From contig NC_135808.1 of assembly GCF_964213995.1 (NCBI RefSeq), forward strand, positions 50,964,001 through 51,028,000: a stretch of DNA of 64,000 nt. The letters are read 5' to 3'. The position numbers and the translations under genes are program-made. Under the pieces are notes generated by a model. It did no database searches. It was not told the DNA's origin and worked only from the letters and a program-made list of their open reading frames with translations. The DNA is from Mustelus asterias (lineage: Eukaryota). Shown here piece after piece: positions 6,917-46,548 of the stretch (positions are counted from its first letter, which is position 1; every line of letters begins with the position of its first letter).

Positions 6917-7194
6917 TGTGGTGAACCATAGATGGTTACCACTATGGGTACTTGTACATAAGTTACTCTTGTTACTGTTGGGGTTAGGGTTTGGGTGTTC
7001 CACCTGTTATTATTGTTTATGTGGTACACTCCGTTCGGCTCCGCCTTCTTACAGGAGTATAAAGGTCACTGCTACTTCCTAGTCGCCCTTAGTTAGGGAT
7101 AATATTGTTAAGTAGTGTGCTCCTATCTTGTTGTGAATAAAAGCCTTTATTCCCGGGTACGTCCTAGCCTCCCGTGTGAATCAATCGCGCATCA
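6917..7194 (+). repeat. 5' LTR of gypsy B1
   Basis: TG...CA termini, TATAAA near 7058, AATAAA at 7136; direct repeat of 11269-11575. Confidence 0.95.
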
Positions 7195-7240
7195 ATTTTA
7201 TTCACAACAAAATACTGAAAATTTTGTTCAGAACAAAAAA

Positions 7241-10200
7241 ATGGAGCAGATGCTAAAGCCCGATCGGCTAAACTTGGATCCGCGTGCCGCTGGGGCGTCG
7301 AACACTTTCGACCATTGGTTGAAGTGCTTCGAGGATTACGTTGAGGCCTCGACAGCAGTCCAGTCCGACGCCGACAGATTGCGGGTCCTCCACGCCAGGG
7401 TGAGCGACACTGTGTATGCAACAATTCACGATTCCCAAAATTACAAAGATGCTATCGAATTACTCAAGAAGCTGTATAATAAACAGCCAAACGAAATTCA
7501 TGCTCGTCACCTATTAGCCACTCGACGGCGGCAGCCCAGCGAAACTACGGGACAGTACCTGCACGAACTTCAACAGCTAGCCAGAGCCTGCAACTGCAAG
7601 GCGGTGTCGGCTACTCAATACACCAACGACCTTATTCGGGACGCGTTCGTGGCGGGAATCGGCTCATCCTATATTCGCCTGCGGCTGCGAGAGCAGGGGA
7701 ACCTGGACCTGGCTAAGATGGTAGAATTGGCCGATGCAATGGAAACGGCCTCCAGAAGTCTCGAAACCTACCCCACTGACCACGTGGTAACAGCGTGGCA
7801 AGCACAGCCGCCGCCTCAGCTGTACTCGGCGGCTCCTCGGAACTGCGCGATGATGCTCCCAACTTCAGACCTGACGGCTGCGGCAGCTCCTGGAGGCCCA
7901 CGGTGCTATTTCTGCGGATTGGCGAAGCATCCTCACCAGAGATGTCCGGCCAGGACGGTGTTTTGCTCCGCCTGTGGAAAGAAAGGGCACTATGCAAAAG
8001 TGTGCCGAGCAAAGACCCCTTCCAAGCCCAGCAGTGCTGCGTGCGACTCTCCAGGATCCGTCTCCTCGTCTCCGGCCTCGTCGATGTCTTCAGCCACGTG
8101 CGATCCACGGGCGCCGCCATTTCCTATGACGACGATGCAAGCCACGTGGAACCTGTGGGTGCCGCCGTTTTCAACATCATCGACCACGTGCGATTCATGG
8201 GCGCAGCCATTTTGGTCGACACCGGCTGCAGAAGACCAGCAGGGGTCCTTGTTGTCGGCTATCTCAGCTGCCTGCAGTTACGCTCGGGATCCAACAGTGG
8301 CGTCAATCATCCTGGACCAGGCCAAGCCTCACAGACTCGACAAGTCCATGATGGACATAGAGGTAAACGGGCGCCTGGCGAATTGCCTGTTTGACAGCGG
8401 GAGCACGAAGAGCTTCATCCATCCGGATAAAGTAAAATGGTGCACTCTCCGTGTGCAAACTGTCAGGCAGACAATCTCCATGGCGTCGAGGTCCCCATCT
8501 GCCCTCGTTCTTGGGAGCTGTGTGGTAACCTTAACGGTGCGGGGCACAGTCTACGAGAACTTCAGGCTCCTCGTGTTACCGCACCTTTGCGCTCCGGTAC
8601 TCCTGGGGCTAGACTTTATGGTCCACCTGAAGAGTGTGACCCTGCAGTACGATGGGCCACTCCCTCCACTTTCAGTGGGAGAACAGCAGCCTCCAAATTG
8701 CCCAACGCGCTCCACATGCAGTCTCTCTACACTCAAAATTACCCCGCCTTCCCTATTCGAAAATCTCGTGCCAGGCTGCAAGTCCATCGCGACTAAGAGC
8801 AGGCGTTACAGCGCTGAGGATCGGATCTTTATTAGATCTGAGGTTCAGCGGCTCCTCAGGGAAGGGGTCATTCAACTTAGCACTAGCCCATGGAGAGCAC
8901 AAGTCGTGGTGGTTAAGACTGGAGACAAGCCCCGGATGGTCATAGACTATAGTCAGACCATTAATAGGTACACGCAGCTGGACGCGTACCCTCTCCCGCG
9001 CATATCTGACATGGTCAATCAGATTGCGCAGTACCGGGTGTTCTCCACCATCGACTTGAAGTCAACCTACCGCCAGCTCCCCATTCGCCCAGAGGACCGC
9101 AAATACACGGCCTTTGAGGCGGATGGCCGTCTCTACCACTTTTTAAGAGTCCCTTTCGGCGTCACTAATGGGGTCTCGGTCTTCCAGCGTGAGATGGACT
9201 GAATGGTGGACCAAACGGGCTATGGGCTACCTTCCCGTACCTGGACAACGTCACTATCTGTGGCCATGACCAGCAGGACCACGACGCAAACCTCCAGAAG
9301 TTTTTACGCACTGCGTCTCGCCTGAACCTGACCTATAACAAGGGGAAGTGCGTATTTAGCAAGCACCGCCTAGCAATCCTCGGAAACGTGGTGGAAAACG
9401 GGGTCATCGGCCCCGATCCAGACCGTATGCGTCCCCTCCTTGAACTTCCCCTACCCACTAGCATCAAAGCACTGAGAAGATGTTCAGGCTTCTTCTCATA
9501 CTACGCACAGTGGGTCCCCAATTACGCGGACAAAGCCCGTCCGCTCATAAAATCTACCTCTTTTCCCCTGGCAGCAGAGGCTCGCTTAGCCTTTGAAAGG
9601 ATAAAAGCCGACATCGCGAAAGCCACGATGCACGCTGTTGATGAATCCATCCCCTTCCAGGTGGAGAGTGATGCATCTGATTTCGCCCTGGCCGCCACAC
9701 TTAACCATGCGGGCAGGCCCGTCGCCTTTTTCTCTCGCACCCTCCAAGGCCCTGAAATTCGGCACTCCTCTGTGGAGAAAGAGGCTCAGGCCATTGTGGA
9801 GGCCGTACGGCATTGGTGCCATTATTTGGCTGGCAAACGGTTTACCCTGCTCACGGACCAGCGGTCCGTGGCCTTCACGTTCAACAACACGCTAAAGGGA
9901 AAAATTAAGAATGATAAAATCTTGAGCTGGAGAATCGAACTCTCCACCTACAACTATGATATCATGTACCGTCCGGGGAAACTCAATGAGCCCTCAGATG
10001 CCCTGTCGCGTGGAACATGTGCCAGTGTGCAGGAGGACCGGTTACAGGCCCTCCACAATGATCTCTGCCATCCGGGGATCACTCGGTTTTTCCATTTTGT
10101 AAAGGCTCGGAATCTGCCCTACTCCATAGAGGATGTCAGGTCGATAACTCGAAGCTGCCAGGTTTGTGCAGAGTGCAAGCCGCACTTCTACCGGCCTGAC

Positions 10201-11205
10201 AGGGCACACCTCATTAAGGCCACTCGCCCTTTTGAACGACTGAGTGTCGACTTCAAGGGCCCCCTTCCTTCGACAGATCGGAATGTGTATTTCCTCAACG
10301 TGGTTGACGAATACTCCCGATTCCCCTTTGCCATCCCCTGTTCTGACATGTCCTCTGCCACGGTCATCAAAGCCCTGCGGAGTCTTTTTACCCTGTTCGG
10401 CTACCCCAGTTATATCCACAGTGATAGGGGTTCGTCGCTTATGAGTGACGACTTGAGGCAATACCTGCTCTCTAAGGGAACTGCCTCAAGTAGGACTACG
10501 AGTTACAACCCCAGGGGTAACGGACAGGTCGAGAGAGAAAACGCTACAGTCTGGAAGGCTGTTTTACTGGCGCTGAGGTCTTGGGGTCTTCCAGTCACCC
10601 GTTGGCAAGAGGTACTTTCTGATGCGCTCCATTCAATCCGGTCCCTCCTGTGTACGGCATCCAACGCTACCCCACATGAGCGGATGTTTACCTTCCCTAG
10701 GAAGTCTTCCTCTGGGACCTCACTGCCGTCTTGGTTGACGTACTCAGGACCTGTCCTCCTGCGGCGACATGTTAGGACCCGCAAGTCCGACCCTTTGGTT
10801 GAACAGGTCCATCTCCTCCACGCCAACCCTCAATATGCCTATGTGGCATATCCTGACGGGCGAGAGGACACGGTCTCGATCAGAGATCTAGCGCCTGCAG
10901 GGGACCTGGAAACTCCCGTAACTCCCGCACCCCTGGTTAGGATTCCTTTGCCCATTCTCTCCCCTCCTGACTCGGCACGGGCAGCATCGGGACCTCAACT
11001 TAATCCTCTTACTCCCGTGTACAGCTTGCCTGAGTCCAGGAGATTGTCGCCACCTCGAGGTCGACAAGCGTGTGAGGAACTGGAGGAGTCAGTGGACACC
11101 ACCTCGGAGAGAGGGTCGTCACCACGGTCACCAGAACCGGCAGTGGAGCCAGTGCTGCGGAGGTCGCAGAGACGGTGCGGCCCTCCGATACGGCTGAAAT
11201 TGTGA
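7241..11205 (+). pseudogene. gag-pol polyprotein of gypsy B1 (single frame, broken by a stop at 9200-9202 and a frameshift near 9215)
   Basis: ORFs 7115-9202 and 9388-11205: two CCHC knuckles, LFDSGST protease, RT with YLDN, RNase H (SDASD...EKEA...TDQ), integrase (H-H-C-C, D-D-E). Confidence 0.92.
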
Positions 11206-11268: not shown

Positions 11269-11575
11269 TGTGGTGAACCATAGATGGTTACCACTATGGG
11301 TACTGAACCATAGATGGTTACCACTATGGGTACTTGTACATATGTTACTCTTGTTACTGTTGGGGTTAGGGTTGGGGTGTTCCACCTGTTATTATTGTTG
11401 ATGTGGTACACTCCGTTCGGCTCCGCCTTCTTACAGGAGTATAAAGGTCACTGCTACTTCCTAGTAGCCCTTAGTCTGGGATAATATTGTTAAGTAGTGT
11501 GCTCCAATCTTGTTGTGAATAAAAGCCTTTATTCCCGGTATGTCCTAGCCTCCCGTGTGAATCAATCGCGCATCA
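11269..11575 (+). repeat. 3' LTR of gypsy B1 (carries a 30-bp tandem duplication)
   Basis: Direct repeat of 6917-7194 following the PPT. Confidence 0.95.
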
Positions 11576-13571
11576 GCCCTGCTGATCATGGCCGCAGATG
11601 GTGACATTATCCAGGTACGGGAAGGTAGCCCGCAGCCCGTTCTGGTCCACCATTCGGTCCATTTCGCGCTGGAAGACCGAGACTCCGTTGGTGACGCCAA
11701 AGGGGACCCTGAGGAAGTGGTAGAGGCGGCCATCCGCCTCGAACGCCGTATATTGGCGGTCCTCCGGGCGGATAGGGAGCTGGTGGTACGCCGACTTCAA
11801 GTCAATGGTGGAGAACACCCGATATTGTGCAATCTGATTGACCATATCAGACATGCGGGGAAGGGGGTACGCGTCCAGCTGCGTATATCGATTAATGGTC
11901 TGACTGTAGTCAATGACCATTCTGTGTTTCGCCCCGGACTTAACGACTACCACTTGTGCTCTCCAGGGGCTGGTACTAGCTTCGATGATCCCTTCCCTGA
12001 GGAGCCGCTGGACTTCGGACCTGATAAAGGCCCTGTCTCCAGCACTATACCGCCTGCTCTTGGTGGCGATGGGCTTGCAGTCAGGAGTGAGATTCGCAAA
12101 CAGGGAGGGAGGGGCAATCTTAAGGGTCGAGAGACTGCAGGTGGTGCGCGGTGGGCAATTTAGACGCTGCTGATTGCAGACGGAGAGCGGGGGAAAAGGC
12201 CCATTATACTGCATAGTGACACTCTTCAGATGGGTCATGAAGTCGAGCCCCAGGAGTACAGAAGTGCAGAGGTGTGGTAGCACGAGGAGCCTGAAGTTAT
12301 CGTATACTGTGCCCCGCACCTTCAGGGTCACCCAGCAGCAGCCGAGGACCTTTATAGAGCGGGATTGTGACGCCATGGAGATCGTCTGCTGGACGGGCCG
12401 CACGGAAAAGGCGTATCAGCGCACCGTATCCGGGTGAATGGAGCTCTCCGTACTCCCACTGTCAAACAAACAATGCTCCCTGTGCCCGTTTACCTCAATG
12501 CCCATCATGGACTCGGCGAGACGATGAGCCTTCGTCTGGTCCAGGGTCACTGATGCCACTGTTGAATCCTGCAGAAAGCTGTAGGGAGTTGTAGCTGTAG
12601 GGGATGGCGGCCCCTGCTGGTCACTCATGGTAATTGTCGGCCAAAAGGACGACCCCCGCGAGTCGCCGACGGCCGATGACGTCATCCAAGATGGCGGCCC
12701 CCACGGGTTGCACGCAGCCAGGGGTGTCCAAGATGGCGGCCCCCGCGGGTCACACGTGGCGCTCGTGGATTTGGGAGCAGACTTACGGCAGGCCTTTCCG
12801 TAGTGCCTCTTCTTCCCACACGCGGAGCAGAATGACTCCCTCGCCGGGCAGTGTTGTCGGGGGTTCTTACCCAGGCCGCAGAAGTAACATTTCGGGCCTC
12901 CAGCGGTTGCAGCCGCGGTCAGGTCACTGGAGAGGCGTGGGGCGGCGTAGGGCTGTGGTCCTCCCAGTAGCGACGGCCGCGGTGTCCAGGATGCGCCCAT
13001 GTGGTCAGGTGAGTAGGATTCCAAAAATGTGGTACCCACAATTAACCACCCTATCGGCTGAGGTCTAACCAGTGCTTCGTGACAGAAGTTGGTCGTTACA
13101 AGGCAAGGGCCTTCAGTGACTACACAAACTAAATTTGTTCTGAACTCTATCTCCAGCTCGAATATCCTCCCACTGCTCTGACACTGATTTACCTTCAAGT
13201 CGCTGTTTCCTCTCCATTTTGGCAAATCCCAGTTTAGTGAAATTGGCCTTTTCCCAATTTAAAACTTTTACTTTTGATCGATCTTTCCCCTTTTCCGTAA
13301 CTACTCTAAATCTAACTATATTATGATCACTGTTACTCAAGTATCTCCCACTGATACACCTTCCAGGTGGGCAGATTCATTCTGTAAAACTGCCCAAAAC
13401 TGCCCCTTCTCTTGTTGGGATTGGTCCGTACTGGTTAAAATAGTTCCCGGGAATGGAATTTCAGAATTCTGCAACATCGAAACATTGACACTGATTTGAT
13501 CCCAGTTTATATTCAGGAAGTTGAAAACCCTGAAAATGGCAGTGATTAAAATTCCTTCTCTTCTCTTTCAG

Positions 13572-13900
13572 CCCGTGAGAATTCACAACCCACGCTGACC
13601 CTGCTGCCCCCCTCCCCGGAGGAGGTCAAGACCAAGGGCACTGCCACCCTGGTGTGCCTTGCCAATCACTTCTATCCCGATGAGGTGGAGGTGAAGTGGA
13701 AGAAGGACGGTGCAGCCATTTCCAACGGGATTCAGACCAGCAACTACCTGCGAGCTACAGACAACACCTACAGCGTCAGCAGCCTGCTGACCCTCTCTGG
13801 CTCCGACTGGGAGTCCAACGCCCGCTTCTCCTGTGCCCTCACCCACGTGAGCCTCTCCTCTCCCCTCAGCAAGAGCGTCAGGAGATCAGAATGTGCCTAG
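13572..13900 (+). CDS. IGKC: Immunoglobulin light-chain (kappa-type) constant exon, copy 1
   Basis: Polypyrimidine tract and AG acceptor at 13570-13571, phase 1; RENSQPTLTLLPPSPEEVKTKGTATLVCLANHFYPDEVEVKW...YSVSSLLTL...FSCALTH...RRSECA-stop. C1-set Cys/Trp/Cys and the penultimate inter-chain Cys are present. Confidence 0.95.
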
Positions 13901-14328
13901 AGTGTTAGAGACAGTCCACAGAGGAGACACAACTTGGAATAGAACAGGGGTGAGCTGGGAGGGCAAAGGTCACTGTCAGCACTGAATTACAACTCTCTTC
14001 TCGGGACTGGGTCTGAGACACTTCTGAGGGTCAGGGGTTAAAGCACATTATTGGTATAGTGTAGAGGGAGCTTTACTTTGTATTTAACCCTGTGCTGTTC
14101 CTGTCCTGGGAGTGTTTGATGGGGACAGTGCAGACTCGTGATAACAAGTATAACCTCTGGAAGATGCTGAAGAGTGTCAGCTGTACAATAATAATGTGAC
14201 CCTGTGAAGTGTCTGCTTCAGTAAACCAGACCTCCTTCCTGCTCACCCTGCAGTTACAATTGAAGCTTTAGTCACTGTTTAAAGGGACAGGATTCTCATG
14301 TTATTGAGAAAATCTCCACAAGTGTTTT

Positions 14329-14417
14329 AATAAACCTCCATTCTCCCTGTGAATTTCTCCAGCTTCCTCTGGCTGGGCTGTTTTTTCTGTCAATGTCAAT
14401 GTGTAAAAGGTAATAAA
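14329..14417 (+). terminator. Two candidate polyadenylation signals for C copy 1
   Basis: AATAAA at 14329-14334 and 14412-14417; both are retained in the paralogous arm. Confidence 0.65.
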
Positions 14418-15429
14418 CATTAAGAATATTCAGTTTCTGTCTGGTGAGTGCTTTGGAAATGTCCCACCTCCCCATCAGCTGATTGGCTGCATTTCACCAA
14501 GTGATTGTCCTGATTGGCTGCTTGGCCTGTCAATCAATGACACATCAGCAGAAGATTGGATTCAAAGCCAATGATCATTCATTTGAAAATGATCAGTTTG
14601 ATCTGGAATCTCTTGAGTGACAAGATTGAAAACAGAAAAGAAACTGAAAGTTGCTGGGATTAAACCATCACAATCACAATTCTCCACCCCGTATTCACCA
14701 CCTCCCCCTTGACCTTAACCATCTCACGTGGTCTCACTGCTCCCATAGTTTCAATCAGAGATAAGACCATCTCTGATCACTTCCTTGTATCACTCCCCAG
14801 CCACATCCTCCTTCCATACCCCAACCCTATCCCCCTTCTGTATCCATCCCTGCAATAATATATTCCCCAATTCACTTACAATCACACTTTCCAAATCCCA
14901 ACTATCTTAAACTTGATTTTACCTGAAGCCAGTTTATTCTCAGACCAGCTCAGCAGAGAGACAACCCCTTTGTTTCTCCACACCCAACTCTTCCAGCTGT
15001 GTCCATTGATCATTGAGCCAATGATCATCACTTGTCTTTATCAATCTAATTGCCAAAGGATGCAATTGCGAGCACATTGACAGAGGCTGGCATGGTGAAA
15101 GTGTCCGTTTGGAAATAGGGAGGGATGGAAGCACAGTGATAATGTCACAGGACTGTTAGCCCTGAGGCTTATTCTTAGGGATACAGAGTCAAATCCCATG
15201 ATGGCATTGGGAGGAATTGGAGTTCTTTTCCCACCAGGATATCGGTATTGGACAAGGCAATCTGCTGTAGTGCTCAAACTGCTGTGAAAGTGTAACATTT
15301 TCACCCCACTTTCTTTAAAGAGAACAGTTTCAAATTAATAAAACCATCATAGAATCTGTATAGATATATAGACACAATGACAAAGAAAAACATTTACTTT
15401 CTAACATCCCAATACCATTAGCAATTTCC

Positions 15430-23790: not shown

Positions 23791-25427
23791 ATGTCTCCTG
23801 TGGGTGCTGAGGCAAATGCTTTAGGGCATAAGGGGGGGTAAGAGGGCACGGGGGTGGGTGAGGGTTTGGATGCGTTGGGGCTTTGGGTGAGTTTGAGATT
23901 GGGGGATATTGTGAAGGGCTGGTCAGGTCATGGGGTGGTTGGTGTTTTTTGGTGCTGCCAATCGAGTCAGGGCGGTATTCAGGAAGGTGAGGGGGTCAGA
24001 CAGGTGCCCTTTGGAGGCAGGGGACATGTTTCAGTTTTATACTGACCCCGGTGTTGGAACTGCTCTGAATCGTTCTAACTTTTCCTGGGTAACTATTCTG
24101 GGCAGGGAGTCAGAAACATCTGAATTCTCCAGATTTCAGTCTGAGATTCAGAGGGTTCCAGACTCAGGGGAATTCCCCACATAGATCCGGGATACGACCA
24201 TCCGGAGATTGGAAGTTCTGGATCAGGAGGTCAGACCAACCAAAGATTGGAAAAAGAGGTGGACAATAAGGAGAGATGGAAAAGATCAAAGTGAGTTGGA
24301 GAGATGGAGAGCTTTAGGGAGGGAATTCCAGAGCTTGGAACCCAGGCAAATGAAGGCACGGCCACCATGGTGGAGACATTATGATCAGGAATGTACAAGA
24401 GGCCAGAGATCCTCACACTTGTTGCTGGAGGTGAGGGGGGAGGGGACAGGTGGGAGGGGTTTAAGAAGTTGGTCTGCAGTTGGGTAAAGAAGCCGGAGCT
24501 TATCTTCTCATTCCAGGATGATCCTGGAATAGTCAGCAGTTTTAGCAGATGAGAGTAGGAGCCGGAAGTGTTTGAAGTGCTCCAGCCAGATCAGCCAGTG
24601 GATGGATAAACCAGTTGTCCACCAGATCCTTTCAAGTCTGTGTCCCTGGGATGAAGTGAGTGGAGATGAGGCCGGAGCAGGGGGAACGGCCGGGGGGAGA
24701 GGGAATCATGGTTTTATTGGGGATTAGGATATCAAAGGTGGGGGTGAGGGGGAGCCAATCAGTCGCTGCAGAAATGTTGTGGTGATCGGAGGGCCAGAGA
24801 CGAGATAGTTGGGATTTGGAAAGTGCGGTTGTAAGTGAATGGACACAGCTGGAAGAGTTGGGTGAGGGGAAACAAAGGGGTTGCCTCCCCACAGAGCTGG
24901 TCTGAGAATCAACTGGCTTCTGGTAAAATGAAATTTAAGATAGATGGGATTTGGAAAGTGCGGTTGTAAGTGGATTGGGGAATAGGTTTTTGCAGGGATG
25001 GATACAGAAGGGGATAGGGTTGGGGGTGTGGAAGGGGGATGTGGCTGGGGAGTGATACAAGGAAGTGATCAGAGATGGTCTTATCTCTGATTGAAACTAT
25101 GGGAGCAGTGAGACCACGTGAGATGGTTAAGGTCAAGGGGGAGGTGGTGAATATGGGGTGGAGAATTGTGATTGTGATGGTTTAATCCCAGCAACTTTCA
25201 GTTTCTTTTCTGTTTTCAATCTTGTCACTCAAAAGATTCCAGATCAAACTGATCATTTTCAAATGAATGATCATTGGCTTTGAATCCAATCTTCTGCTGA
25301 TGTGTCATTGATTGACAGGCCAAGCAGCCAATCAGGACAATCTCTTGGTGAAATGCAGCCAATCAGCTGATGGGGAGGTGGGACATTTCCAAAGCACTCA
25401 CCAGACAGAAACGGAATATTCTTAATG

Positions 25428-25516
25428 TTTATTACCTTTTACACATTGACATTGACAGAAAAAACAGCCCAGCCAGAGGAAGCTGGAGAAATTCACAGGG
25501 AGAATGGAGGTTTATT
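25428..25516 (-). terminator. Two candidate polyadenylation signals for C copy 2
   Basis: TTTATT at 25511-25516 and 25428-25433. Confidence 0.65.
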
Positions 25517-25999
25517 AAAACACTTGTGGAGATTTTCTCAATAACATGAGAATCCTGTCCCTTTAAACAGTGACTAAAGCTTCAATTGTAACTGCAGGGT
25601 GAGCAGGAAGGAGGTCTGGTTTACTGAAGCAGACACTTCACAGGGTCACATTATTATTGTACAGCTGACACTCTTCAGCATCTTCCAGAGGTTATACTTG
25701 TTATCACGATTCTGCACTGTCCCCATCAAACACTCCCAGAACAGGAACAGAGTAAAACTCCCTCTACACAGTCCCTATCAAACAGTCCCAGGACAGGAAC
25801 AGCATGGGGTTAATACAGAGTAAAGCTCCCTCTACACTATACCAATAACGTGCTTTAACCCCTGACCCTCAGAAGTGTCTCAGACCCAGTCCCGAGGAGG
25901 AAGGGAGTTGTAATTCAGTGCTGACAATGACCTTTGCCCTCCCAGCTCACCCCTGTTCTATTTCAAGTTGTGCCTCCTCTGTGGACTGTCTCTAACACT

Positions 26000-26328
26000 C
26001 TAGGCACATTCTGATCTCCTGACGCTCTTGCTGAGGGGAGAGGAGAGGCTCACGTGGGTGAGGGCACAGGAGAAGCGGGCGTTGGACTCCCAGTCGGAGC
26101 CAGAGAGGGTCAGCAGGCTGCTGACGCTGTAGGTGTTGTCTGAAGCTCGCAGGTAATTGCTGGTCTGAACCCCGTTGGAAATGGCTGCACCATCCTTCTT
26201 CCACTTCACCTCCACCTCATCAGGATAGAAGTGATTGGCAAGGCACACCAGGGTGGCAGTGCCCTTGGTCTTGACCTCCTCCGGGGAGGGGGGCAGCAGG
26301 GTCAGCGTGGGTTGTGAATTCTCACGGG
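26000..26328 (-). CDS. IGKC: Immunoglobulin light-chain (kappa-type) constant exon, copy 2; C exon of the complete cluster
   Basis: AG acceptor at 26330-26329, phase 1 matching the J donor; 329 nt; protein identical to copy 1 except I/V and T/S. Confidence 0.95.
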
Positions 26329-26813
26329 CTGAAAGAGAAGAGGAGGAATTTTAATCACTGCCATTTTCAGGCTTTCAACTTCCCGAATATTGACTGGGAT
26401 CAAATCAGTGTCAATGTTTCGATGTTGCAGAATTCTGAAAATCCATTCTGGGGGAAATTTTTTAACCAGCACGGAACAATCCCAACAAGAGAAGGGGCAG
26501 TTTTGGGCAGTTTTATAGAATGAATCTCGGCATATGGAAGGTGTATCAGTGGGAGAGCATTTGGGTAATAGTGATCATAATACAGTTAGATTTAGAGTAG
26601 TTACGGAAAAGGGGAAAGATCGATCAAGAGTAAACGTTTTAAATTGGGAAAAGGCCAATTTCACTAAACTGGGATTTGCCAAAATGGAGAGGAAACAGCA
26701 ACTTGAAGGTAAATCAGTGTCAGAGCAGTGGGAGGATATTCGAGCTGGAGTTAGAGTTCAGAACAAATATGTTCACACAAAGCAACAGCGTGGGACATTG
26801 CAAGGAGGATAAC

Positions 26814-27110
26814 TGTGGTGAACCATTGTTGGTTACCACCAGGTAGTGCTGAGCCATGGTCTGGCCAGTACTATGAGTCTGTAGATATGTTACTGTTGGG
26901 GTTAGGGTTGGGCTGTTCTACCTTTTAATATAGTCCTATGATACACCCCAGTTGGCTCCGCCTCCTGGGAGAGGTATAAAGGTCACTGCTCTGCCTGGTG
27001 ACCCTTTAGTCTGGGATTGTATATTGTATATAGTAGCTCCGTTATTGTTGGCAATAAAAGCCTTTATTTCCCGGGTACATCCTGTCTCCCGTGTGATTTA
27101 TCACGCATCA
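26814..27110 (+). mobile_element. Solo LTR of the B-like gypsy family, inserted in an old CR1 remnant
   Basis: TGTGGTGAACC...GCATCA with a perfect 5-bp target duplication ATAAC; TATAAA and AATAAA present. Confidence 0.93.
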
Positions 27111-28365
27111 ATAACTAAGGAATGAATAGGGCAGGTTAGAGAGCAAAAAGATAACTTGTGTGTGGAGGGAGAAGACATAGAGATGGTTCTGAATGAATAA
27201 TTTACATCAGATATCACAAATGAGAGGGACAAAGCTGACATTGTAGTTCAGGAGGGGAGGGATTGTGAAATAATTAATGGGATAATGATAGTGTGGGAGG
27301 AGATATTAATGTGCTTATCATCTTTGAAAGTGGAAAAATTCCCAGGCCCGGGTGAAATGTATCCCAGGATGCGAAGGGAAGCAAGGGAAGAAAAAGCAGA
27401 GACTCTGACCATTATTTCCCAATCCTCTCTGGCTACAGGTGTGGTGTGGGAGGACTGGAGGACGGATAACGCTGTACCATTGTTTAAAATTAAAAGCTGA
27501 TGAAATCCAAGGGAAAGTGACAAGTTGGATTTCAAAGTAGTTCAGTGTCTGGGGTAAAGGTTTGATTTGAAGCTGGTTAAATCATTTTGCAATGTTACTG
27601 AAACATCTGTAAAGAAGGTTACTACAAATTCAGCACTGAAATGGTGAATAGTGAGAGTATTTAAAGACACAGTGTCCCTTTAAGAGACTGTTAACCAGTC
27701 AGGAAGCTGGAACTATTGCTCAGTCTGTCTGGGAGAAACAGGTTGAGCATCAACAAACCTCAGATCACACACAGATCAGGAGAACTTTATCCCAGAACAT
27801 TGCAGCAGACTTGGATCAACACAGTTCACACAGCATTCTGATTGGCTGTCACTGTGGAAGCTTCTAGATTTCATTTCACACCTTACCGCACAGCACTGGG
27901 CTGAGAGATGGAGCATATAAGTAATGAAGAGAGGTTGCGTAGGATTGGCTTATTTTTGTTGGAGCAGAGATGACTGAGGGGCGACCTGTTCAAAGTCTAC
28001 AAGGCTATGAGAGACATGGACAGCGTGCTTAAGGAGCAACTATTCCCATTAGTTGAAGGGTCAGTCAGAAGGGGACATAGGTTCAAGGTGAGGGGCAGGA
28101 GGTTTAGGGGGGATGTGAGGAAAAACCTTTTTACCCAGAGGGTGGTGACGGTCTGGAAGGCACTGCCTGGGAGGGTGGTAGAGCAGGTTGGCTTCCATCC
28201 TTTAGAAGTATCTAGATGAGCACTTGGCACATCATAACATTTAGGGCTATGGGCCAAGTGCTGACAGATGGGATTAGGTATGAATTCAGATATTTCTAAT
28301 GTGTCGGTGGTGACTCACTGGGCCGAATGGCCTCTTGTGCACTGTATTATTCTATGATTCTATGA
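27111..28365 (+). mobile_element. Decayed CR1 fragments (about 27111-27500 and 27900-28365)
   Basis: KFPGPGEMYPR...EDWRTDNAVPLFK and FTQRVVTVWKALP motifs. Confidence 0.75.
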
Positions 28366-28785: not shown

Positions 28786-29636
28786 TGTGGTGAACCACTG
28801 TAATGCTGTCTGTTTATGGGATATGCCTGGGCATGCCCCTGCTGCCTCAATCCGGGGCTCCGCCCTCCTCGGGGTATAAAGGTGGCTGCTCTCCACCCCT
28901 TTTGCCTCAGTTCGGGTTAGCATCGGTTTGGGAGTGCTTCAGTTCTTTGTTAATAAAAGCCTGTTGTTTAGCAACCTCTAGTCTTTGCGTGAATCAATGG
29001 TGCATCAATTTTATTAACAACAGTTTTGAAATGGAGCAACTCCTGAAACCTGGCAAATTGGATCTGGATCCGCAGGCAGTCGGCGCCTCTGACTCTTTTG
29101 ATCACTGGCTGCGCTGTTTTGAGACCTTCATCGTCTCCTCCTCCTCCGTCGTCGTAACCGACATCGACAAACTACACGTGCTCCACGCCCGCGTCAGCGC
29201 TCACGTCTTCGCGCTGATCCGAGACGCAGAGACTTACCAGGAGGCAATCGATCTCCTCAAGAGCCAGTACAACCGGCAGCTGAACGAGGTCTACACCAGA
29301 CACCTGCTGGCCACTCGCAGACAGCAGCCCGGGGAATCGACTGAGCAATTCCTGCGCGAACTGCGTGCACTCGGCAGAGCCTGCAACTGCAAGGCCGTTT
29401 CAGCCGCCCAAAACGCCGACGACCTGATCAGAGATGCCTTTGTCGCGGGCATCAGGTCGACCGATATCCGGCAGCGTCTGCTGGAGCAAGGTGGGCCGGA
29501 CCTGAAGAAAACTGTGGAACTTGCCGGCTCGCTGGAGGTAGCGTTCCGGAACCTCGAGGCCTACACCCCCGGCCACGAGGGCGCACCGTGGACACCGCGA
29601 CCGCAGCCATCGCTGTACCCGGGAGGGCCGCAAACC

Positions 29637-29913
29637 TGATGCGCGATTGATTCACACGGGAGGCTAGAACGTACCCGGGAATAAAGGCTTTTATTCACGA
29701 CAAATAGGAGCACACTACTTAACAATATTATCCCAGACTAAAGACTGCTAGGAAGTAGCAGTGACCTTTATACTCCTGTAAGAAGGCGGAGCCGAACGGA
29801 GTGTACCACATAAACAATAATAACAGGTGGAACACCCCAACCCTAACCCCAACAGTAACAAGAGTAACATATGCACAAGTACCCATAGTGGTAACCATCT
29901 ATGGTTCACCACA
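29637..29913 (-). mobile_element. Solo LTR of family B inserted in gag of element C
   Basis: Reverse complement of 6917-7194; perfect target duplication AAACC. Confidence 0.95.
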
Positions 29914-32319
29914 AAACCTACACCACGCCCCATCCCGAAGCCGAACTGACCACTGCGGCAGTCCCCGGAGGCGTGAGGTGCTACTTCTGCGGCCTGGAGA
30001 AGCACCCACGACGACGCTGCCCGGCGAAAGACGCGATCTGCTCTGGCTGCGGTAAGAAGGGTCATTACCTGAAAGTTTGCAGGGCAAAATCAGCCTCCAG
30101 GCCCAGCAGCGCCGCGTGCGATCCGCGGGAGGGATTGCCTTCGACGCCATCGACCGGGTGTGATCCGCCATTTTGGACACGAGCGGCCACGTGCGACCCA
30201 TGGAGGCCGCCATCTTGGACGCCATCAGCCACGCGTGACCCACGGGAGCCGCCATCTTGGGTGACGTCAGCCGAGTCACGGGGGCCGCCATTTTGGGAAC
30301 CGTCCACCGCATCGCCTAATCCGACAGTGGCCTTGGTCGTGTTGGACCAGTCCAGGCCTCACCAGCTCGCCTGGTCGATGATGGACATCAAGGTAAACGG
30401 CCACACTACTAACTGCTTATTTGACAGTGGGAGTACGGAGAGTTTCATCCACCCTAACCCGGTGAGGCGCTACGCACTGCCAGTACGGCCAATGCAGCAA
30501 TCAATCTCTATGGCTTCGAAGTTCCGGTCAGTGAATGTCCTCAGCTACTGTGTAGCAACTCTGACTGTACGGGGCACGGTGTACGACAAGTGCAAGCTCC
30601 TCGTGCTGCCACAGCTCTGCGCTGCCGTATTACTGGGGCTAGATTTCATGTGCCACCTTGGGAGCGTCACCATGGTGTATAATGGGCCTTTTCCCCCAAT
30701 CTCCGTCCAAAATCCACAGCTAACAGACCAGCCACCGCGCACCACCTGTGGTCTCTCGACCCTCAAAGTCGCCCCTCCCTCGCTCTTTGAGCACCTCACC
30801 CCCGACTGCAAGCCCATTGCCACCAAAAGCAGACGGTACAGCGCTGGTGATAGAGTGTTCATCAAGTCCGAGGTGCGACGCCTCCTGGGGGAGGGGATCA
30901 TTGAGGCCAGTACCAGCCCTTGGAGAGCCCAAGTGGTGGTTATCAAGACTGGGGAGAAACATCGCATGGTCATTGACTACAGTCAGACCATCAACCGATA
31001 CACGCAGCTGGACGCGTATCCCTTCCCCACATATCTGACATGGTCAATCAGATTGCACAATATCGGGTGTTCTCCACCATTGATTTAAAGTCTGCATACC
31101 ACCAGCTCCCTATCCGCCCGGAAGACCGCCAATACACTGCCTTCGAGGCGGATGGCCGTCTCTACCACTTCCTTTGGGTCCCTTACGGCGTCACCAACGG
31201 GGTCTCGGTTTTCCAGCATGAGATGGACCGAATGGTGGACCAGAATGGGCTGGGGGCCACCTTCCCGTACCTGGATAACGTCACCATCTGCTGCCACGAT
31301 CAGCAGGACCACGACGCCAACCTCCAAAAATTCCTCCACACTGCGGCACTCCTCAACCTGACCTACAATAAGGAGAAGTGTGTATTCCGCACGCGCCACC
31401 TCGCCATCCTTGGTTGTGTTGTGGAGAACGGGGTCATCAGCCCCGACCCCGACCGCATGCGTCCCCTCCTGGAACTTCCCCTCCCCACCACCCTCAAAGT
31501 GCTGAGGAGATGCCTAGGCTTCTTCTCGTACTACGCCCAGTGGGTCCCCAATTATCCGGACAAAGCCCGTCCGCTCATTAAATCCACATCTTTTCCCCTA
31601 GCAGCGGAGGCCCGGCTGGATATCAAAGCGGATATCGCGAAGGCCACGATGCACGCCGTAGACTAATCCACCCCATTCCAGGTGGATAACGATGCGTCTG
31701 ATTTTGCCCGAGCCGCCACTCTTAACCAGGCGGGCAGACCCGTGGCCTTCTTCTCGCGCACCCTCCAGGGCCCTGAAATTCGACACTCCTCTGTCGATAA
31801 AGAGGCACAAGCCATCGTGGAGGCGGTGCGGCACTGGCGCCACTACTTAGCTGGCAAACGGTTCACCCTGCTCACGGAGCAACGGTCCGTTGCCTTTATG
31901 TTCAGCAACACGCAGCGGGGCAAAATCAAGAACGATAATATTTTGAGGTGGAGGATCAAGCTCTCCACTTAGAATTACGACATTTTATACCGGCCTGGGA
32001 AACTCAATGAACCCCCAGATGCCCTGTCCCGGGGGACCTGTGCCAGCGTGAACCTAGACCGGTTACAGACCCTCCACGATGACCTCTGCCACCCGGGGGT
32101 TACCAGGTTCTTCCATTTCATCAAGGCCCGGAACCTGCCCTATTCCATTGAGGAAGTCAGGTCTGTAACCAGGCACTGCCAAGTCTGCGCGGAGTGCAAG
32201 CCGCACTTCTACCGACCAGACAGAGCGCACCTCATCAAAGCCATCCGCCCTTTCGAATGCCTGAGCGTTGACTTCAAAGGTCCCCTCCCCTCCTCTGACC
32301 GCAACGTATACTTCCTCAT

Positions 32320-35300
32320 ATTGGAGGAACAGAGAGATCTTGGGGTCCATTTCCACAGATCTCTAAAGGTTGCCACTCAAGTGGATAGAGCTGTGAAGAA
32401 GGCCTATAGTGTGTTAGCGTTTATTAACAGGGGGTTTGAGTTTAAGAGCCGTGGGGTTATGCTGCAACTGTACAGGACCTTGGTGAGACCACATTTGGAA
32501 TATTGTGTGCAGTTCTGGTCACCTCACTATAAGAAGGATGTGGAAGCGCTGGAAAGAGTGCAGAGGAGATTTACCAGGATGCTGCCTGGTTTGAAGGGTA
32601 GGTCTTATGAGGAAAGGTTGCGGGAGCTAGGGCTGTTCTCTCTGGAGCGGAAGAGGCTGAGGGGAGACTTAATAGAGGTTTATAAAATGATGAAGGGGAT
32701 AGATAGAGTGAACGTTCAAAGACTATTTCCTCGGGTGGATGGAGCTATTACAAGGGGGCATAACTATAGGGTCCGAGGTGGCGACAATCTCCTGGACTCA
32801 GGCAAGCTGTACACGGGAGTAAGAGGATTAAGTGGTGGTCCCGATACTGCCCGCGCCGTGTCAGGAGGGGAGATAAAGGGCAAGGGGTCCCTAACCAGGG
32901 GTGCGGGAGCGACGGGGGTTTCCAGGTCCCCTGCAGGCGCCAGATCTCGAATAGAGACCGTGTCCTCTCACCCGTCAGGATATGCTACATAGGCATATTG
33001 AGGGTTGGCGTGAAGGAGATGGACCTGTTCAACCAAAGGGTCGGACTTGCAGGTCCTAACATGCCGCCGCAGGAGGACAGGTCCTGAGTACGTCAACCAA
33101 GACGGCAGTGAGGTCCCAGAGGAAGACTTCCTAGGGAAGGTAAACATCCGCTCATGTGGGGTAGCGTTGGTTGCCGTACACAGGAGGGACCAGATTGAAT
33201 GGAGCGCATCAGGAAGTACCTCTTGCCAACGGGAGACTGGAAGATCCTTAGACCTCAACGCCAGTAAGACAGCCTTCCAGACTGTAGTGTTTTCTCTTTC
33301 GACCTGCCCGTTACCCCTGGGGTTGTAACTCGTAGTCCTACTTGAGGCAATCCCTTTAGAGAGCAGGTATTGCCTCAAGTCGTCACTCATAAACAACGAA
33401 CCCCTATCACAGTGGATATAACTGGGGTAACCAAACAGGGTGAAAAGATCCCACAGAGCTTTGATAACCGTGGCAGCGGTCATGTCTGAACAGGGAATGG
33501 CAAAAGGCAATCGGGAGTACTCGTCAACCACGTTGAGGAAGTACACATTCCGGTCTGTCGAAGGAAGGGGGCCCTTGAAATCAACACTCAGTCTTTCAAA
33601 AGGGCAAGTGGCTTTAATGAGGTGTGCCCTGTCAGGTCGGTAGAAGTGCGGCTTGCATTCAGCACATACCTGGCAGCTTCGAGTTATCGACCTGACATCC
33701 TCTACGGAGTAGGGTAGATTCCGGGCCTTTACAAAATGGAAGAGCCGAGTGATCCCCGGATGGCAGAGATCATTGTGGAGGGCCTGTAGCCGGTCCTCCT
33801 GCACACTGGCACATGTTCCACGTGACAGGGCATCTGAGGGCTCATTGAGCTTCCCCAGACGGTACATGATATCATAGTTGTAGGTGGAGAGTTCGATTCT
33901 CCACCTCAAGATTTTATCATTTTTGATCTTACCCCTTAACGTGTTGTTGAACATGAACGCCACGGACCGCTGGTCCGTGAGCAGGGTAAATCGTTTTCCA
34001 GCCAAATCATGGCGCCAATGCCGTACGGCCTCCACAATGGCCTGAGCCTCTTTTTCCACAGCAGAGTGCCGAATTTCAGGGCCTTGGAGGGTGCGAGAGA
34101 AAAAGGCGACGGGCCTGCCCGCCTGGTTAAGTGTGGCGGCCAGGGCGAAATCAGATACATCACTCTCCACCTGGAAGGGGATGGACTCATCGACAGCGTG
34201 CATCGTGGCTTTCGCGATGTCGGCTTTTATCCCTTCAAAGGCTAAGCGAGCCTCTGCTGCCAGGGGAAAAGAGGTAGACTTTATGAGCGGACGGGCTTTG
34301 TCCGCATAATTGGGAACTCACTGTGCGTAATACGAAAAGAAGCCTAAGCATCTTCTCAGTGCTTTGATGCTAGTGGGTAGGGGAAGTTCAAGGAGGGGAC
34401 GCATACGGTCTGGATCAGGGCCAAGGACCCCGTTTTCCACCACGTATCCGAGAATTGCTAGGCGGCGCTTGCTGAATACACACTTCTCCCTGTTATAGGT
34501 CAGGTTCAGGCGAGACGCAGTGCGTAAAAACTTTAGGAGGTTGGCATCGTGGTCCTGCTGGTCATGGCCGCAGATAGTGACGTTGTCCAGGTACGGGAAG
34601 GTAGCCCGTAGCCCATTTTGGTCCACCATTCGGTCCATTGCACGCTGGAAGACCGAGAACCCATTCGTGATGCCAAAGGGAACCCTTAAGAAGTGGTAGA
34701 GACGACCATCCGCCTCAAAGGCCGTATATTTTCGGTCCTCTGGGTGAATGGGGAGCTGGTGATAGGCTGACTACAAGTCAATGGTGGAGAACACCCGGTA
34801 CTGCGCAATCTGGTTGACCATGTCAGATATGCGCGGGAGAGGGTACGCGTCCAGCTGCGTGTATCTATTAATGGTCTGACTATAGTCTATGACCATCCGG
34901 GGCTTGTCTCCAATCTTAACCACCACGACTTGTGCTCTCCATGGGCTAGTGCTAGGTTGAATGATCCCTTCCCTGAGGAGCCGCTGAACCTCAGATCGAA
35001 TAAAGATCCGATCCTCAGCGCTGTAACGCCTGCTCTTAGTTGCGATGGGCTTGCAGCCTGAAACGAGATTCTCAAATAAAGATGGCGGGGTGATTCTGAG
35101 TGTCGAGAGACTGCACGTGGAGCGCGCTGGGCAATTTGGAGGCTGCTGTTCTCCCACTGAAAGTGGAGGGAGTGGCCCATCGTACTGCAGGGTCACACTC
35201 TTCAGGTGGACCATAAAGTCTAGTCCCAGGAGTATCGGAGCGCAAAGGTGCGGTAACACGAGGAGCCTGAAGTTCTCATAAACTGTGCCCCGCACCGTTA

Positions 35301-37090: not shown

Positions 37091-40000
37091 TCAACATCGT
37101 TGATGGGTATTCGCGGTTCCCCTTTGCTATTCCCTGCCCGGATATGACCTCGGCCACGGTCGTCAGGGCCCTGCACAGCCTCTTCACCCTGTTTGGTTTC
37201 CCCAGCTATATTCATAGCGACTGGGGTTCCTCTTTTATGAGTGACGAGCTGCGCCAGTACCTACTCTCCAAAGGCATAGTCTTGAGCAGGACCACCAGCT
37301 ACAACCCCAGGGGGGATGGACAGGTGGAGAGGGAGAATGCGACAGTCTGGAAGGCCATTTTATTAGCTCTCCGGTCTAAGGGTCTTCCAGTCTCCCGCTG
37401 GCAAGAGGTCCTCCCTGATGCACTACACTCAATTAGGTCACGACTGTGCACCCCTCATGAACGAATGTTTGTTTTCCCCAGGAAGTCCTCCTCGGGGACC
37501 TCACTACCGTCGTGGCTGACGTCCCCAGGCCCTGTCCTGCTCCGGAAGCACGTGCGGACCCATAAGTCGGACCCCCTGATCGAAACGGTCCGGCTCCTCC
37601 ACGCCAACCCCCAATACGCCTATGTGGCGTATCATGACGGGCGGGTGGACACGGTCTCCATTCGCGATCTGGCCCCCGCAGGTACTACGTCCCACGGCCC
37701 CTCACCCCCAGCTCCCAACGTCGTCCATGATGCACAAGAGTCGCAGCACGCTCATTTAGCCCCCGTGTACGGCACGCCTGAGCCCCAGGAGCTGCCTCCA
37801 CACACCCGGCAGTCTGAAGGCGCGACGGACGGCTTCACCGGTTATGGACTGGCGTCTGACCCATCACCGCGGCCTCCTGAACCGGCGCCACGGCTGACAT
37901 TGCGGCGGTCGCAGCGGCAGATCAAGCCCCCGGAGAGACTGAACTTGTAACTTGAATCAATAACTTGTGACTGTCGTTCCACCACCTCGCCCCCGCCAAA
38001 CTCTTTTTTAAACAGGGGGTGAATGTGGTGAACCACTGTAATGCTGTCTGTATATGGGATATGCCTGGGCACGCCCCTGCTGCCTCAATCCGGGGCTCCG
38101 CCCTCCTCGGGGTATAAAGGTGGCTGCTCTCCGCCCCTTTTGCGTCAGTTCAGGTTAGCCATCGGTTTGGGAGTGCTTCTGTTCTTGTTAATAAAAGCCT
38201 GTTGTTTCGCAACATCTAGTCTTTGCGTGAATCAATGGTGCATCACTCGATACTGCACTGGATCTCAGCCTGGATGATGTGCTCAAGCGTCAGGAATGGG
38301 ATTTGAAGCCACAACATTGTGACTCAGAGGCGAGAGTGTTAGCCACTAAGGTACGTCTGACACCTCACACTCCAATAGGCTGCCATCTTCACCCTCCTGC
38401 CTCACACTTGGAGGAATGAGGCAACTTGGGGAGGGTGGAGCTGTTCCCCAGCCAGAGAGAGTGTCTTCAGGAGAGAGATGGAGAGCAGATTGTGGGAGGC
38501 CTGTAGTCTAGAGGGGGGACATTTAACCAGTCGCTGACAGGTGCTGAGCCCTTTCCCCATGAGGATTTTGGAAGTGGATGCGGAAAGTGGGAGGTGAACT
38601 AGAGAAATGTCTTTGTCGCTGCTGAAACTCTTGCTATCTGCTCAGTCACATCTAATAAACACACAGACAAATCAGGCAAACATCAGTCTGTTTCTGTGGA
38701 TTCTCTGCTGCTTTCAGTTCAATGAAGAGTGCAGGAGGACATGGCAGGAGCAACAGCAGACATACTGAAAAATGAGGTGTTAACCTGGTGAAGCTACAAC
38801 ACAGGACTGTGTGTCAAACAGCAGAAGCAGCAAGTGATAGACAGAGCTAAACCATCCCACAAACAATGGATCAGATCTAAGCTCTGCAGTCCTGCCACAT
38901 CCGGGGACCAATGCTTGATCCGTGGGGGTGTTAGATGGGCAGCAATGAGGGGTCGTGGGGCTGGCCAGTGATCAGGAGGCCAGCAGTGCGGGCCACTGTG
39001 CTTGTGCCAATCTCTGCACATGCACAGTGGCTCACTCAGCACTACGCTGCTGGCCTCTCCAGCAAGAATAGGCCCCAGTCCCAGATTTTTATCTTGAATC
39101 TCACTAGGGCTCTCTGTGATGCACAGAGTGTGGGAGATTCACTTTGAACATTTTTTTTACAGTTTTTACACGATTTTGACACTTAGAATGTTTTTGGGAG
39201 AATCCTACCTCCAAGGTTTTGGCCTCAAATGATTGTGGTGATAGTGAATTCCACAGGCTCACCACTCTCTGGGTGAAGGAAATTCTGCTCATCTCAGCCC
39301 TAAAAGTTTTACACCGTATCCTCAGGCTGTGACCTCTGGAACCGGACACTCCCACCACCAGGAACATAATTCCTGTATCTCCCCTGTCTAGTCCTGTTCA
39401 TAGCTTTCTATGAGATCTCCTCTCACTCTTCTGAACTGCAGTGAATATAATCTTAACCAACACAATCTCTCCTCCTACATCAGTCCCATTATCCCAGGAA
39501 TCAGTCCGGTAAACCTTTGCTGCGCTCCCACTGTCGCAAAGACATCCTTCCTCAGATAAGGATACCCAAACGGCAAGCAATTTTCCCAGTGTGGCCTCAC
39601 CAAAGGACATAGAGAGGACAAATACAAAGAAACTTTTCCCCAAGTAGAAGGGTCAATAACCAGGAAGAATAGATTTAATTTCAGATTTTGAGGGACTTGA
39701 TGCAAATCTTTTCACCCAGAGGTTCTGGGAATCCGAAACTCACTGCCTGAAATGGTGGAAGCAGTGGGAACCCCCACAACATTTAAAAAGCATTTAGATG
39801 AGCACTTGAAGCCCCAAAGCGCACAAGGCTACAGACCACGTGCTGGGAAATGGGATTAGAATAGATAGGTGCTTAATGGCCGGCAGAGACAGGATGGGCT
39901 GAAGGGCCTCTTTCTGTGCTGTAAATTTCTATGAGACGATGACTGAGCCAAGATGGCCGAGAATGTAAAGTGACCAGCTTCTGGAAAATTCCGATGTGGG

Positions 40001-42150: not shown

Positions 42151-42332
42151 CAGTGTTTTGTTGGGAGAGTTGAGAATTCTAATTTGAGATGATAAATCTT
42201 TCAGCTGCTCTTCATATGTGGACATGGAGAGTAAGAGGGAAACTCGAGGCCTTCAGCGAGCGGTGGACACCACAGGGACTGGAGTGTGTAGTGGACAGTG
42301 CAAATAATTTGTCCAGTTTCCTTTCTTGTCTT

Positions 42333-43487
42333 TATTATATATTATATAAAACTGTGGGATGTGTCAGTACAGGAGGTGGGACTGTGTGTCCATTATTATA
42401 TATTATATAAAACTGTGGGATGTGTCAGTACAGGAGGTGGGACTGTGTGTCCATTATTATATATTATATAAAACTGTGGGATGTGTCAGTACAGGAGGTG
42501 GGACTGTGTGTCCATTATTATATATTATATAAAACTGTGGGATGTGTCAGTACAGGAGGTGGGACTGTGTGTCCATTATTATATATTATATAAAACTGTG
42601 GGATGTGTCAGTACAGGAGGTGGGACTGTGTGTCCATTATTATATATTATATAAAACTGTGGGATGTGTCAGTACAGGAGGTGGGACTGTGTGTCCATTA
42701 TTATTTATTATATAAAACTGTGGGATGTGTCAGTACAGGAGGTGGTGCTGTGTGTCCATTATTATATATTATATAAAACTGTGGGATGTGTCAGTACAGG
42801 AGGTGGGACTGTGTGTCCATTATTATATATTATATAAAACTTTGGGATGTGTCAGTACAGGAGGTGGTGCTGTGTGTCCATTATTATATATTATATAAAA
42901 CTGTGGGATGTGTCAGTACAGGAGGTGGTGCTGTGTGTCCATTATTATATATTATATAAAACTGTGGGATGTGTCAGTCCAGGAGGTGGGACTGTGTGTC
43001 CATTATTATATATTATATAAAACTGTGGGATGTGTCAGCACAGGAGGTGATGCTGTGTGTCCATTATTATATATTATATAAAACTGTGGGATGTGTCAGT
43101 ACAGGAGGTGGGACTGTGTGTCCATTATTATATATTATATAAAACTGTGGGATGTGTCAGTACAGGAGGTGGGACTGTGTGTCCATTATTATATATTATA
43201 TAAAACTGTGGGATGTGTCAGTACAGGAGGTGGGACTGTGTGTCCATTATTATATATTATATAAAACTGTGGGATGTGTCAGTACAGGAGGTGGGACTGT
43301 GTGTCCATTATTATATATTATATAAAACTGTGGGATGTGTCAGTACAGGAGGTGGGACTGTGTGTCCATTATTATATATTATATAAAACTGTGGGATGTG
43401 TCAGTACAGGAGGTGGGACTGTGTGTCCATTATTATATATTATATAAAACTGTGGGATGTGTCAGTACAGGAGGTGGTGCTGTGTGT
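42333..43487. repeat. 61-bp minisatellite, about 19 near-identical copies, in the V-J interval
   Basis: Unit GTGTCAGTACAGGAGGTGGGACTGTGTGTCCATTATTATATATTATATAAAACTGTGGGAT; starts at 42361 and 43459 are 18 x 61 bp apart. Confidence 0.97.
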
Positions 43488-43492
43488 GGGGG

Positions 43493-43520
43493 GGTTTTTG
43501 TAAGGCTCTGTATCACTGTG
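43493..43520 (-). promoter_or_regulatory. 12-bp-spacer recombination signal sequence of V
   Basis: Minus strand CACAGTG, 12 bp, ACAAAAACC; both elements are perfect consensus. Confidence 0.97.
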
Positions 43521-43818
43521 CAGGGCCAGCTGGAACATTGCAGACAGTAATAATCAGCGACATCCTCATTCTGTACATTGCTGATTGTCAGGATGGATCT
43601 TGTCCCAGATCCACTGCCGGTGAATCGGTCGGATATTCCTGTGAATCGAGTTGCTACAGTATAGATCAGCAGAGCCGGTTTATGTCCTTCTCGCTGTTGG
43701 TACCAATTCACGTAACTGCCAATGCTTTGACTGGCCGTACAGGTGATGGTGGCGGTCTGGCCCAGGCTCACTGACAGCAGCGGGGGAGACTGGGTCATGA
43801 TGACGTCTCCATTGATAC
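43521..43818 (-). CDS. IGKV: Immunoglobulin light-chain (kappa-type) V exon, germline unrearranged
   Basis: AG acceptor at 43820-43819; (G)[26 protein letters not shown]...WYQQ...LLIY...RFTGSGSGT...[15 protein letters not shown]; open frame; 12-RSS follows directly. Confidence 0.95.
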
Positions 43819-45850: not shown

Positions 45851-45891
45851 TATAACATAAAGAAACTGCTCCACATCGACCATGTCCATGT

Positions 45892-46258: not shown

Positions 46259-46548
46259 TAGCTGAGCTTCAAACTCCACATCCTCCCCATCACGTAAGCC
46301 TCTTATTTCCATCTCTACAACATTGTCCGTCTCTACACTACACCAGCCCCATGAGCGCAGAGACTCTTATCCCTGCTTCTCACTCCTCCTAACTCTATTA
46401 TTCCGATATCCTCTCCTGGCTCCCTTCATCCACACTCCATAAACCCCAACTTATCCCAAATGCAGTGCGTCCGAACCCTGTCTCACACCAAGTGTCGTTC
46501 CAACATCACCCCTGACCTCACTGACCTATCACCCCTGACCTCACTGAC

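Follow-up and report, generated by a model that had tools for sequence, protein, structure and literature searches.

The 64,000-nucleotide stretch of Mustelus asterias DNA analysed here (the window) contains five copies of related LTR retrotransposons, B1, A, C, B2 and D (Table 1). The elements are about 4.3-4.7 kb long. Their LTRs measure 220-280 bp, the target duplications are 5 bp long, and all five elements are disrupted by stops or frameshifts. Copy B1 is inserted within the reverse transcriptase (RT) of copy A, for which no 5' LTR was located, and the 3' LTR of copy B2 was not found in place. An earlier note, made from the sequence alone, had read the RT catalytic motif as FPYLDNV in all five copies, and each of the five positions and asparagine codons is verified here. 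The same note had described the insertions as intact and flanked by target duplications. The duplication of D is indeed perfect, but those of B1 and C match at 4 of 5 bases, and the five reading frames are broken.

Table 1. Coordinates of the five elements and their parts, in window positions unless another locus is named.
Feature	Position	Strand	Remarks
B1 RT motif C (YLDN)	9238-9249	+	codon AAC; frame broken just 5' of the motif
A RT motif C (YLDN)	11606-11617	-	codon AAT
C RT motif C (YLDN)	31268-31279	+	codon AAC
B2 RT motif C (YLDN)	34582-34593	-	codon AAC
D RT motif C (YLDN)	63985-63996	+	codon AAT
B1 5' LTR (TG...CA)	6917-7194	+	96.7% identity with B1 3' LTR
B1 TATA-like box	7058-7063	+	inside 5' LTR
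B1 LTR arm complementary to primer site	7128-7142	+	includes AATAAA signal
B1 primer-binding position	7196-7210	+	15/15 bases complementary to 7128-7142; without tRNA-type TGG start
B1 gag-pol	7241-11205	+	two CCHC knuckles, protease, RT, RNase H, integrase; now two frames
B1 3' LTR	11269-11575	+	preceded by polypurine tract; target duplication GTCCT/GCCCT
A, pieces	~12898-11579, 6920-6304, 5145-4129	-	3' LTR ends at 3566
C 5' LTR	28786-29007	+	arm 28947-28958 pairs with primer site 29009-29020
C 3' LTR	38024-38245	+	95.5% identity with C 5' LTR; target duplication CTCAA/CTCGA
B2, nested in C	~36900 to 32774	-	5' LTR ends at 36628, then self-complementary primer site
D 5' LTR (61800-62042) and self-complementary primer site	61800-62053	+	
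D 3' LTR, outside the window	L138:3089-3330		95.5% identity with D 5' LTR; target duplication GGGGG/GGGGG
RT frames with clade-specific residues	7112-9202, 11573-12415, 62941-63999		

Other repeats lie within and around these copies. About 35 bases are duplicated in tandem where the 3' LTR of B1 begins (11269-11340), a feature absent from its 5' LTR. Within the gag of C (29637-29913, minus strand) there is a solo LTR of the B family, flanked by a perfect GGTTT duplication, and an LTR-like stretch of the same clade is found at 26814-27112 (plus strand). The gag region of copy A is split by the first member of a 1.9-kb inverted pair (13133-15007 and 24838-26768), which is 93% alike as a whole and in places as much as 98%. 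There are many LINE fragments whose motif reads FADD or FVDD (at 586, 6037, 17577, 23173, 49089, 51956 and 59972), and one LINE frame of 861 codons (47331-49916) has endonuclease and RT Pfam matches. Tandem arrays of 61-bp and 44-bp units occupy 42210-43607 and 45847-46276.

The order of pol domains in the B1 frames by Pfam (protease, RT, RNase H, integrase) is that of Ty3/Gypsy elements (Metaviridae), and the TG...CA LTRs, polypurine tract and 5-bp duplications of B1, C, D and their relatives agree with the 4-6 bp expected of this group. By sequence, the best match among solved structures is Ty3 RT. Protein atlas names for the clade are generic Gypsy only, and the RT tree described below contained no named Gypsy references. 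Three named candidates were considered and rejected. Saci-2/lennie, as far as its available description goes, has a 4-bp duplication rather than 5 bp and a tRNA primer site rather than one that pairs with the LTR, a comparison made by description and with no tRNA set. The Kuafuorterviruses (Troyka) show IADD, VADD or LADD according to their published description, against YLDN here. A BEL/Pao element with YVDN is disfavored by the two CCHC knuckles in place of a triple Cys-His box, by the lack of room for env, and by the Gypsy-type Pfam set.

The asparagine of YLDN aligns with the second aspartate of the YLDD motif of Ty3 RT, Ty3 D214 (4OL8, E 3.6e-26). The first two RT aspartates are kept and the third position is asparagine, so that the site departs from the canonical three-aspartate arrangement (D ... 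YxDD). A loose codon pattern, Y-x-D-N-x-T-(V/I)-x-G, and its D form gave 10,908 YxDN and 21 YxDD matches across the M. asterias genome and 0 in reversed controls, which excludes chance. A stricter pattern returned 1,840 copies with N, 7 with D and 13 with S, as well as 5 with glycine at the essential aspartate; D is thus no commoner than other single A-to-G changes. The 13 D copies that we inspected are spread over several families, are at most 94% alike in pairs, and have stops within a 300-codon frame in 10 cases; two small D groups in their tree, which sampled just 24 N rows, may reflect this thin sampling. The YxDD copies of this genome are scattered point mutants, and asparagine is a fixed trait of the lineage in the M. 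asterias families. The earlier note had offered the use of both AAC and AAT across families as proof against decay of a single copy. On its own this is weak evidence, since decay at CpG (AAC-G) is expected to turn AAC into AAT, and it is the genome counts and the relatives that carry the argument.

We also sampled 20 stretches of the genome (14 for long frames, 5 as pattern matches, plus the continuation of the window). YLDN was present in 19, the remaining one giving no motif, and an LTR pair with the primer site was recovered in 10, at 86.8-98.2% LTR identity. None of the 20 holds a copy with identical LTRs, the best being that at 98.2%, and the family may therefore be past its peak in M. 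asterias. Young autonomous copies with YLDD, which the earlier note had named as evidence that would speak against its reading, did not emerge: the genome has no young YLDD master family, and the young intact relatives carry asparagine.

Among the best 120 of 659 protein matches, 105 read DN, 13 DD and 2 are degenerate; the named hosts among them include rays, catsharks, corals and an anemone, with the closest named proteins, at about 75-82% identity, in rays and catsharks. When the best 150 representatives were added, RT stretches of at least 40% identity comprised 146 DN, 69 DD and 6 others (n=221). Below 40% identity there were 94 DD, one ED and no DN (n=95, many of them derived from long multi-RT records), and YxDN is thus not scattered among tRNA-primed clades, an outcome that the earlier note had considered damaging to its view. 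A tree of the RT core without the D/N column (IQ-TREE, quick LG+G4, 183 rows, after dropping proteins below 200 residues and loci below 140 and removing same-label near-duplicates) placed 165 rows in one clade with SH-aLRT 99 (100 DN, 62 DD, 3 degenerate), apart from 18 outgroup rows that are all DD. Among the RT stretches compared, asparagine at the third position occurs only inside this clade. The early branches of the clade are DD, and DD rows also lie deep within DN groups, including one cluster of three. The D/N label changes 19-21 times, with 9-10 changes forced by strongly supported branches; this count is approximate because one change is a point mutant from the M. asterias genome, some single D rows may be decayed copies, as L011 is, and support is weak for 67 of 179 inner branches. 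A scan of viral contigs found no relatives of the clade. Clade elements do occur in contigs filed under bacterial metagenome-assembled genomes (L097-L100 and L103), most likely as host contamination.

Several features point to an enzyme that functions while bearing asparagine. Between families, dN/dS computed on the 99 codons that lead to the motif lies mostly at 0.02-0.05, with one pair at 0.10; the RT was thus under strong purifying selection while it bore asparagine. Values for pairs that involve copy C (0.14-0.27) are raised by 14 codons read out of frame at the start, and saturation affects pairs whose dS exceeds about 1.5. Within families the values are 0.36 and 0.07. Three metagenome loci, L023, L027 and L028, all from one record series, each have a single intact frame of 1,217-1,243 codons with the DN motif, LTRs 99.0-99.6% identical, and perfect 5-bp target duplications. 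The first two RT aspartates, like the first aspartate of RNase H, do not vary across 97 aligned proteins, whereas at the third RT position 65 of them have N and 32 have D. In an AlphaFold model (pLDDT 89) of a natural RT-RNase H stretch, the motif lies where it usually does, on the turn that joins two strands, and the closest folds are CaMV RT first and Ty3 RT second. The model thus indicates a normal RT fold and does not speak to activity, side-chain geometry or metal geometry. The proposal of a naturally functional YxDN enzyme therefore gains support from purifying selection, the genome counts and the young intact relatives with asparagine, and judging from these sequences the DN enzyme very probably works unaided.

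The primer-binding position is unusual in being complementary to the element's own LTR. In B1, the 15-base complement starts one base past the 5' LTR, with the LTR arm 53 nt upstream, and copies C, D and B2 each have their own matched version of arm and primer site. The arm lies about 65 nt downstream of the TATA-like box. By analogy with Tf1 and Tj1, the site would prime reverse transcription on the element's own RNA. Among DN loci, 20 of the 22 in which the gag start can be read have a stem of 9-18 bases at this position, and in 18 of them it exceeds the best of 20 shuffles; two DN loci, L073 and L079, gave no stem. DD families have it as well: the stem measures 14 bases in L029, 15 in L042, 15 in L074/L075 (a decayed copy reading DLDD), 15 in L100, and 10 in L057, where it falls below the shuffle maximum though at the same position. 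The LTR junction is readable in these five DD families, and the self-complementary site is there in all five. Of 20 clade DD loci scanned whole, 14 lack a stem but are uninformative, 13 having no detectable gag start and one having 102 bases before gag. Folding energies of the stem regions are mixed (z -0.1 to -3.8), and L042 folds otherwise. In the window families the arm covers AATAAA (7128-7210, 28947-29020 and 61977-62053), which could let the stem hide the 5' poly(A) signal as well; among relatives the arm sequence varies with pairing kept, and is not always AATAAA.

Mapping the primer site onto the RT tree, as the earlier note had proposed, confines YxDN to the clade with the self-complementary site and shows that site in the five readable DD families too. 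Three of the DD families with the stem, L057, L100 and L074, are early branches. The stem is thus older than the asparagine and stays the same when the residue switches.

Taken together, it is probable that the five copies belong to a widespread animal Ty3/Gypsy clade in which the third acidic position is either asparagine or aspartate and the enzyme is still active. The two invariant aspartates would hold the metals, and the third position would tolerate either residue, its carboxylate assisting catalysis and pyrophosphate handling rather than metal holding, as the biochemistry of Ty1 and Ty3 suggests. Since relatives switch between D and N with the same primer site, the enzyme likely works either way. 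The self-complementary primer site would then be a property of the whole clade that predates the asparagine and is common to its YxDD members.

The Ty1 and Ty3 mutants at this position cannot transpose, and Ty1 D211N is 223-fold slower, so some compensation would be needed. The clade background may absorb the cost of asparagine, with a threonine two residues past the site as the best candidate and other clade-specific changes near the active site as further ones. This threonine is present in 94 of 99 DN rows (5 lack it) and in 35 of 62 DD rows, but independent pairs give this association no significance (p 0.5-0.6), and among the RT columns none tracks D/N, the six top columns being non-significant over 5-9 well-supported independent pairs; for RNase H the comparison covered how far three catalytic residues are conserved. 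The clade does differ from other Gypsy RTs as a whole: WRAQ, DYSQTIN and NGV replace residues common elsewhere, and at 21 RT columns the clade residue is shared by 80% or more of 162 clade rows but is rare among 18 outgroup rows. A more specific version is that the site was rebuilt so as to make the third carboxylate dispensable, through the threonine at +2, WRAQ and DYSQTIN in the fingers and NGV in motif B, a step that nothing before the switch to self-priming would have allowed. We regard this version as tentative and rather doubtful. If it were true, natural D/N sister pairs would reveal suppressors by which an RT with two carboxylates can carry reverse transcription to completion in vivo, a thing beyond the Ty1 and Ty3 mutants.

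The earlier note had linked the asparagine to priming, the idea being that a start on the element's own RNA stem needs or favors this residue. In this comparison DN does occur only inside the clade with the self-complementary site, nearly all readable DN loci show the stem, and the outgroup locus L105, which has LTRs, combines a tRNA-type TGG site with YLDD. Yet a single clade provides a single comparison. Within it the residue has changed some 19-21 times while the primer site stayed constant, DD families, early-branching ones included, share the stem, and nematode BEL/Pao elements reached YVDN separately. With a primer site older than the asparagine and present in YxDD members, the asparagine is likely not an adaptation to self-priming, and tight co-adaptation of the two is unlikely.

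Asparagine could instead act as a brake: in some hosts a slower RT would be favored or tolerated for keeping transposition down, and aspartate would return when speed pays. The slow Ty1 D211N and the less processive Ty3 D214N would fit, as would the persistence of only D or N in 162 of 165 clade rows, which indicates that the site is constrained rather than free. However, the asparagine families have reached about 11,000 copies in M. asterias, and no D subfamily has overtaken them though single D mutants arise; we consider a brake improbable. Another way to reconcile the gene with a canonical enzyme is that aspartate is restored by A-to-I editing of the first codon base or by protein deamidation. 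Although AAY to GAY is one A-to-G change, packaged edited RNA would give GAY copies, and GAY makes up just 0.2-0.4%, no commoner than other A-to-G changes; Asn-Val and Asn-Ile, moreover, deamidate slowly, and restoration by either route is very unlikely. It is likewise highly improbable that the YxDN elements are non-autonomous and copied by the YxDD RT of another element, for although the window contains LINE RTs with intact DD motifs, the RT is under strong purifying selection with invariant RT and RNase H aspartates, young relatives have full intact frames, and the genome has no DD family of the clade.

The YxDN RT of this large animal Gypsy clade is real, fixed in the M. asterias families and likely functional. 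The clade offers many natural Asp/Asn sister enzymes and a family of about 11,000 copies that amplified with asparagine, which makes the role of the third aspartate testable on unaltered proteins. Annotation that reads loss of YxDD as a dead element will get this clade wrong. With YxDN known in BEL/Pao and the third carboxylate known as the least essential, the finding surprises only to a limited degree. No report of YxDN in Gypsy was found in the literature searched, which lay mostly outside subscription journals, Repbase and GyDB.

Among named animal elements, Cigr-1 is similar in size to the window elements, with short LTRs and a single frame. The Cigr-1 clade of Ty3/Gypsy, named from Ciona intestinalis, is reported in molluscs and annelids (PMC6238403, PMC8556966), and the available portions of these papers make no mention of YxDN or of the primer site for it; no YLDN or WRAQ sequences turned up in their searchable supplements or in those of PMC13524379. 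The nearest counterparts of the primer site are the self-primed Ty3/Gypsy elements of fission yeasts, Tf1/Tf2 and Tj1 (PMC4600332), in which, according to the accessible text, the primer site likewise complements a stretch of the 5' LTR of the same element. In those yeast elements a 5' segment of the mRNA serves as primer. Here the arm lies about 65 nt past a TATA-like box, often over AATAAA, and self-priming is putative. Unlike Tf1/sushi chromoviruses, the B1 pol frame gave no Pfam match to a chromodomain after the integrase.

Asparagine in place of the last aspartate of motif C also occurs naturally in a working enzyme elsewhere, in the GDN of non-segmented negative-strand RNA virus polymerases; these are RNA-dependent RNA polymerases rather than RTs, and GDN is fixed in that group. 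The same aligned residue has been altered in Ty3 D214N and Ty1 D211N, which keep polymerase activity, as the clade enzyme would, but are laboratory-made, do not transpose, and come from elements that prime on tRNA. In Ty3, as far as the available account goes, D151N and D213N abolish polymerase activity and D214N keeps it with lower processivity and no transposition, and its authors assign metal binding to the first two aspartates. Ty1 D211N is 223-fold slower, prefers Mn and has altered pyrophosphate binding, and its transposition was restored to 5-10% by RNase H suppressors. The statement in the earlier note that the change cripples HIV-1 RT and leaves Ty1 polymerizing but not transposing agrees with the accessible text of PMC2148107 and PMC554778.

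The earlier note overlooked a published precedent for YxDN in the YVDN of nematode BEL/Pao elements. For Cer7-Cer12 of C. elegans, Bowen and McDonald are said to be the source of this motif. Natural YxDN is thus already in print, in the available portions of PMC554778 (2005), which states that the activity of Cer7-Cer12 remains to be tested, and of PMC9094657, in which Atlas virus of Ancylostoma ceylanicum has YVDN, 100% identical LTRs and an intact frame. As in the clade described here, YxDD ends in a natural asparagine in these LTR elements, and they look as if they had moved recently. They belong to another superfamily and carry env, which is lacking here, and YVDN is described as a feature of their group, whereas D and N alternate among close relatives in the Gypsy clade.
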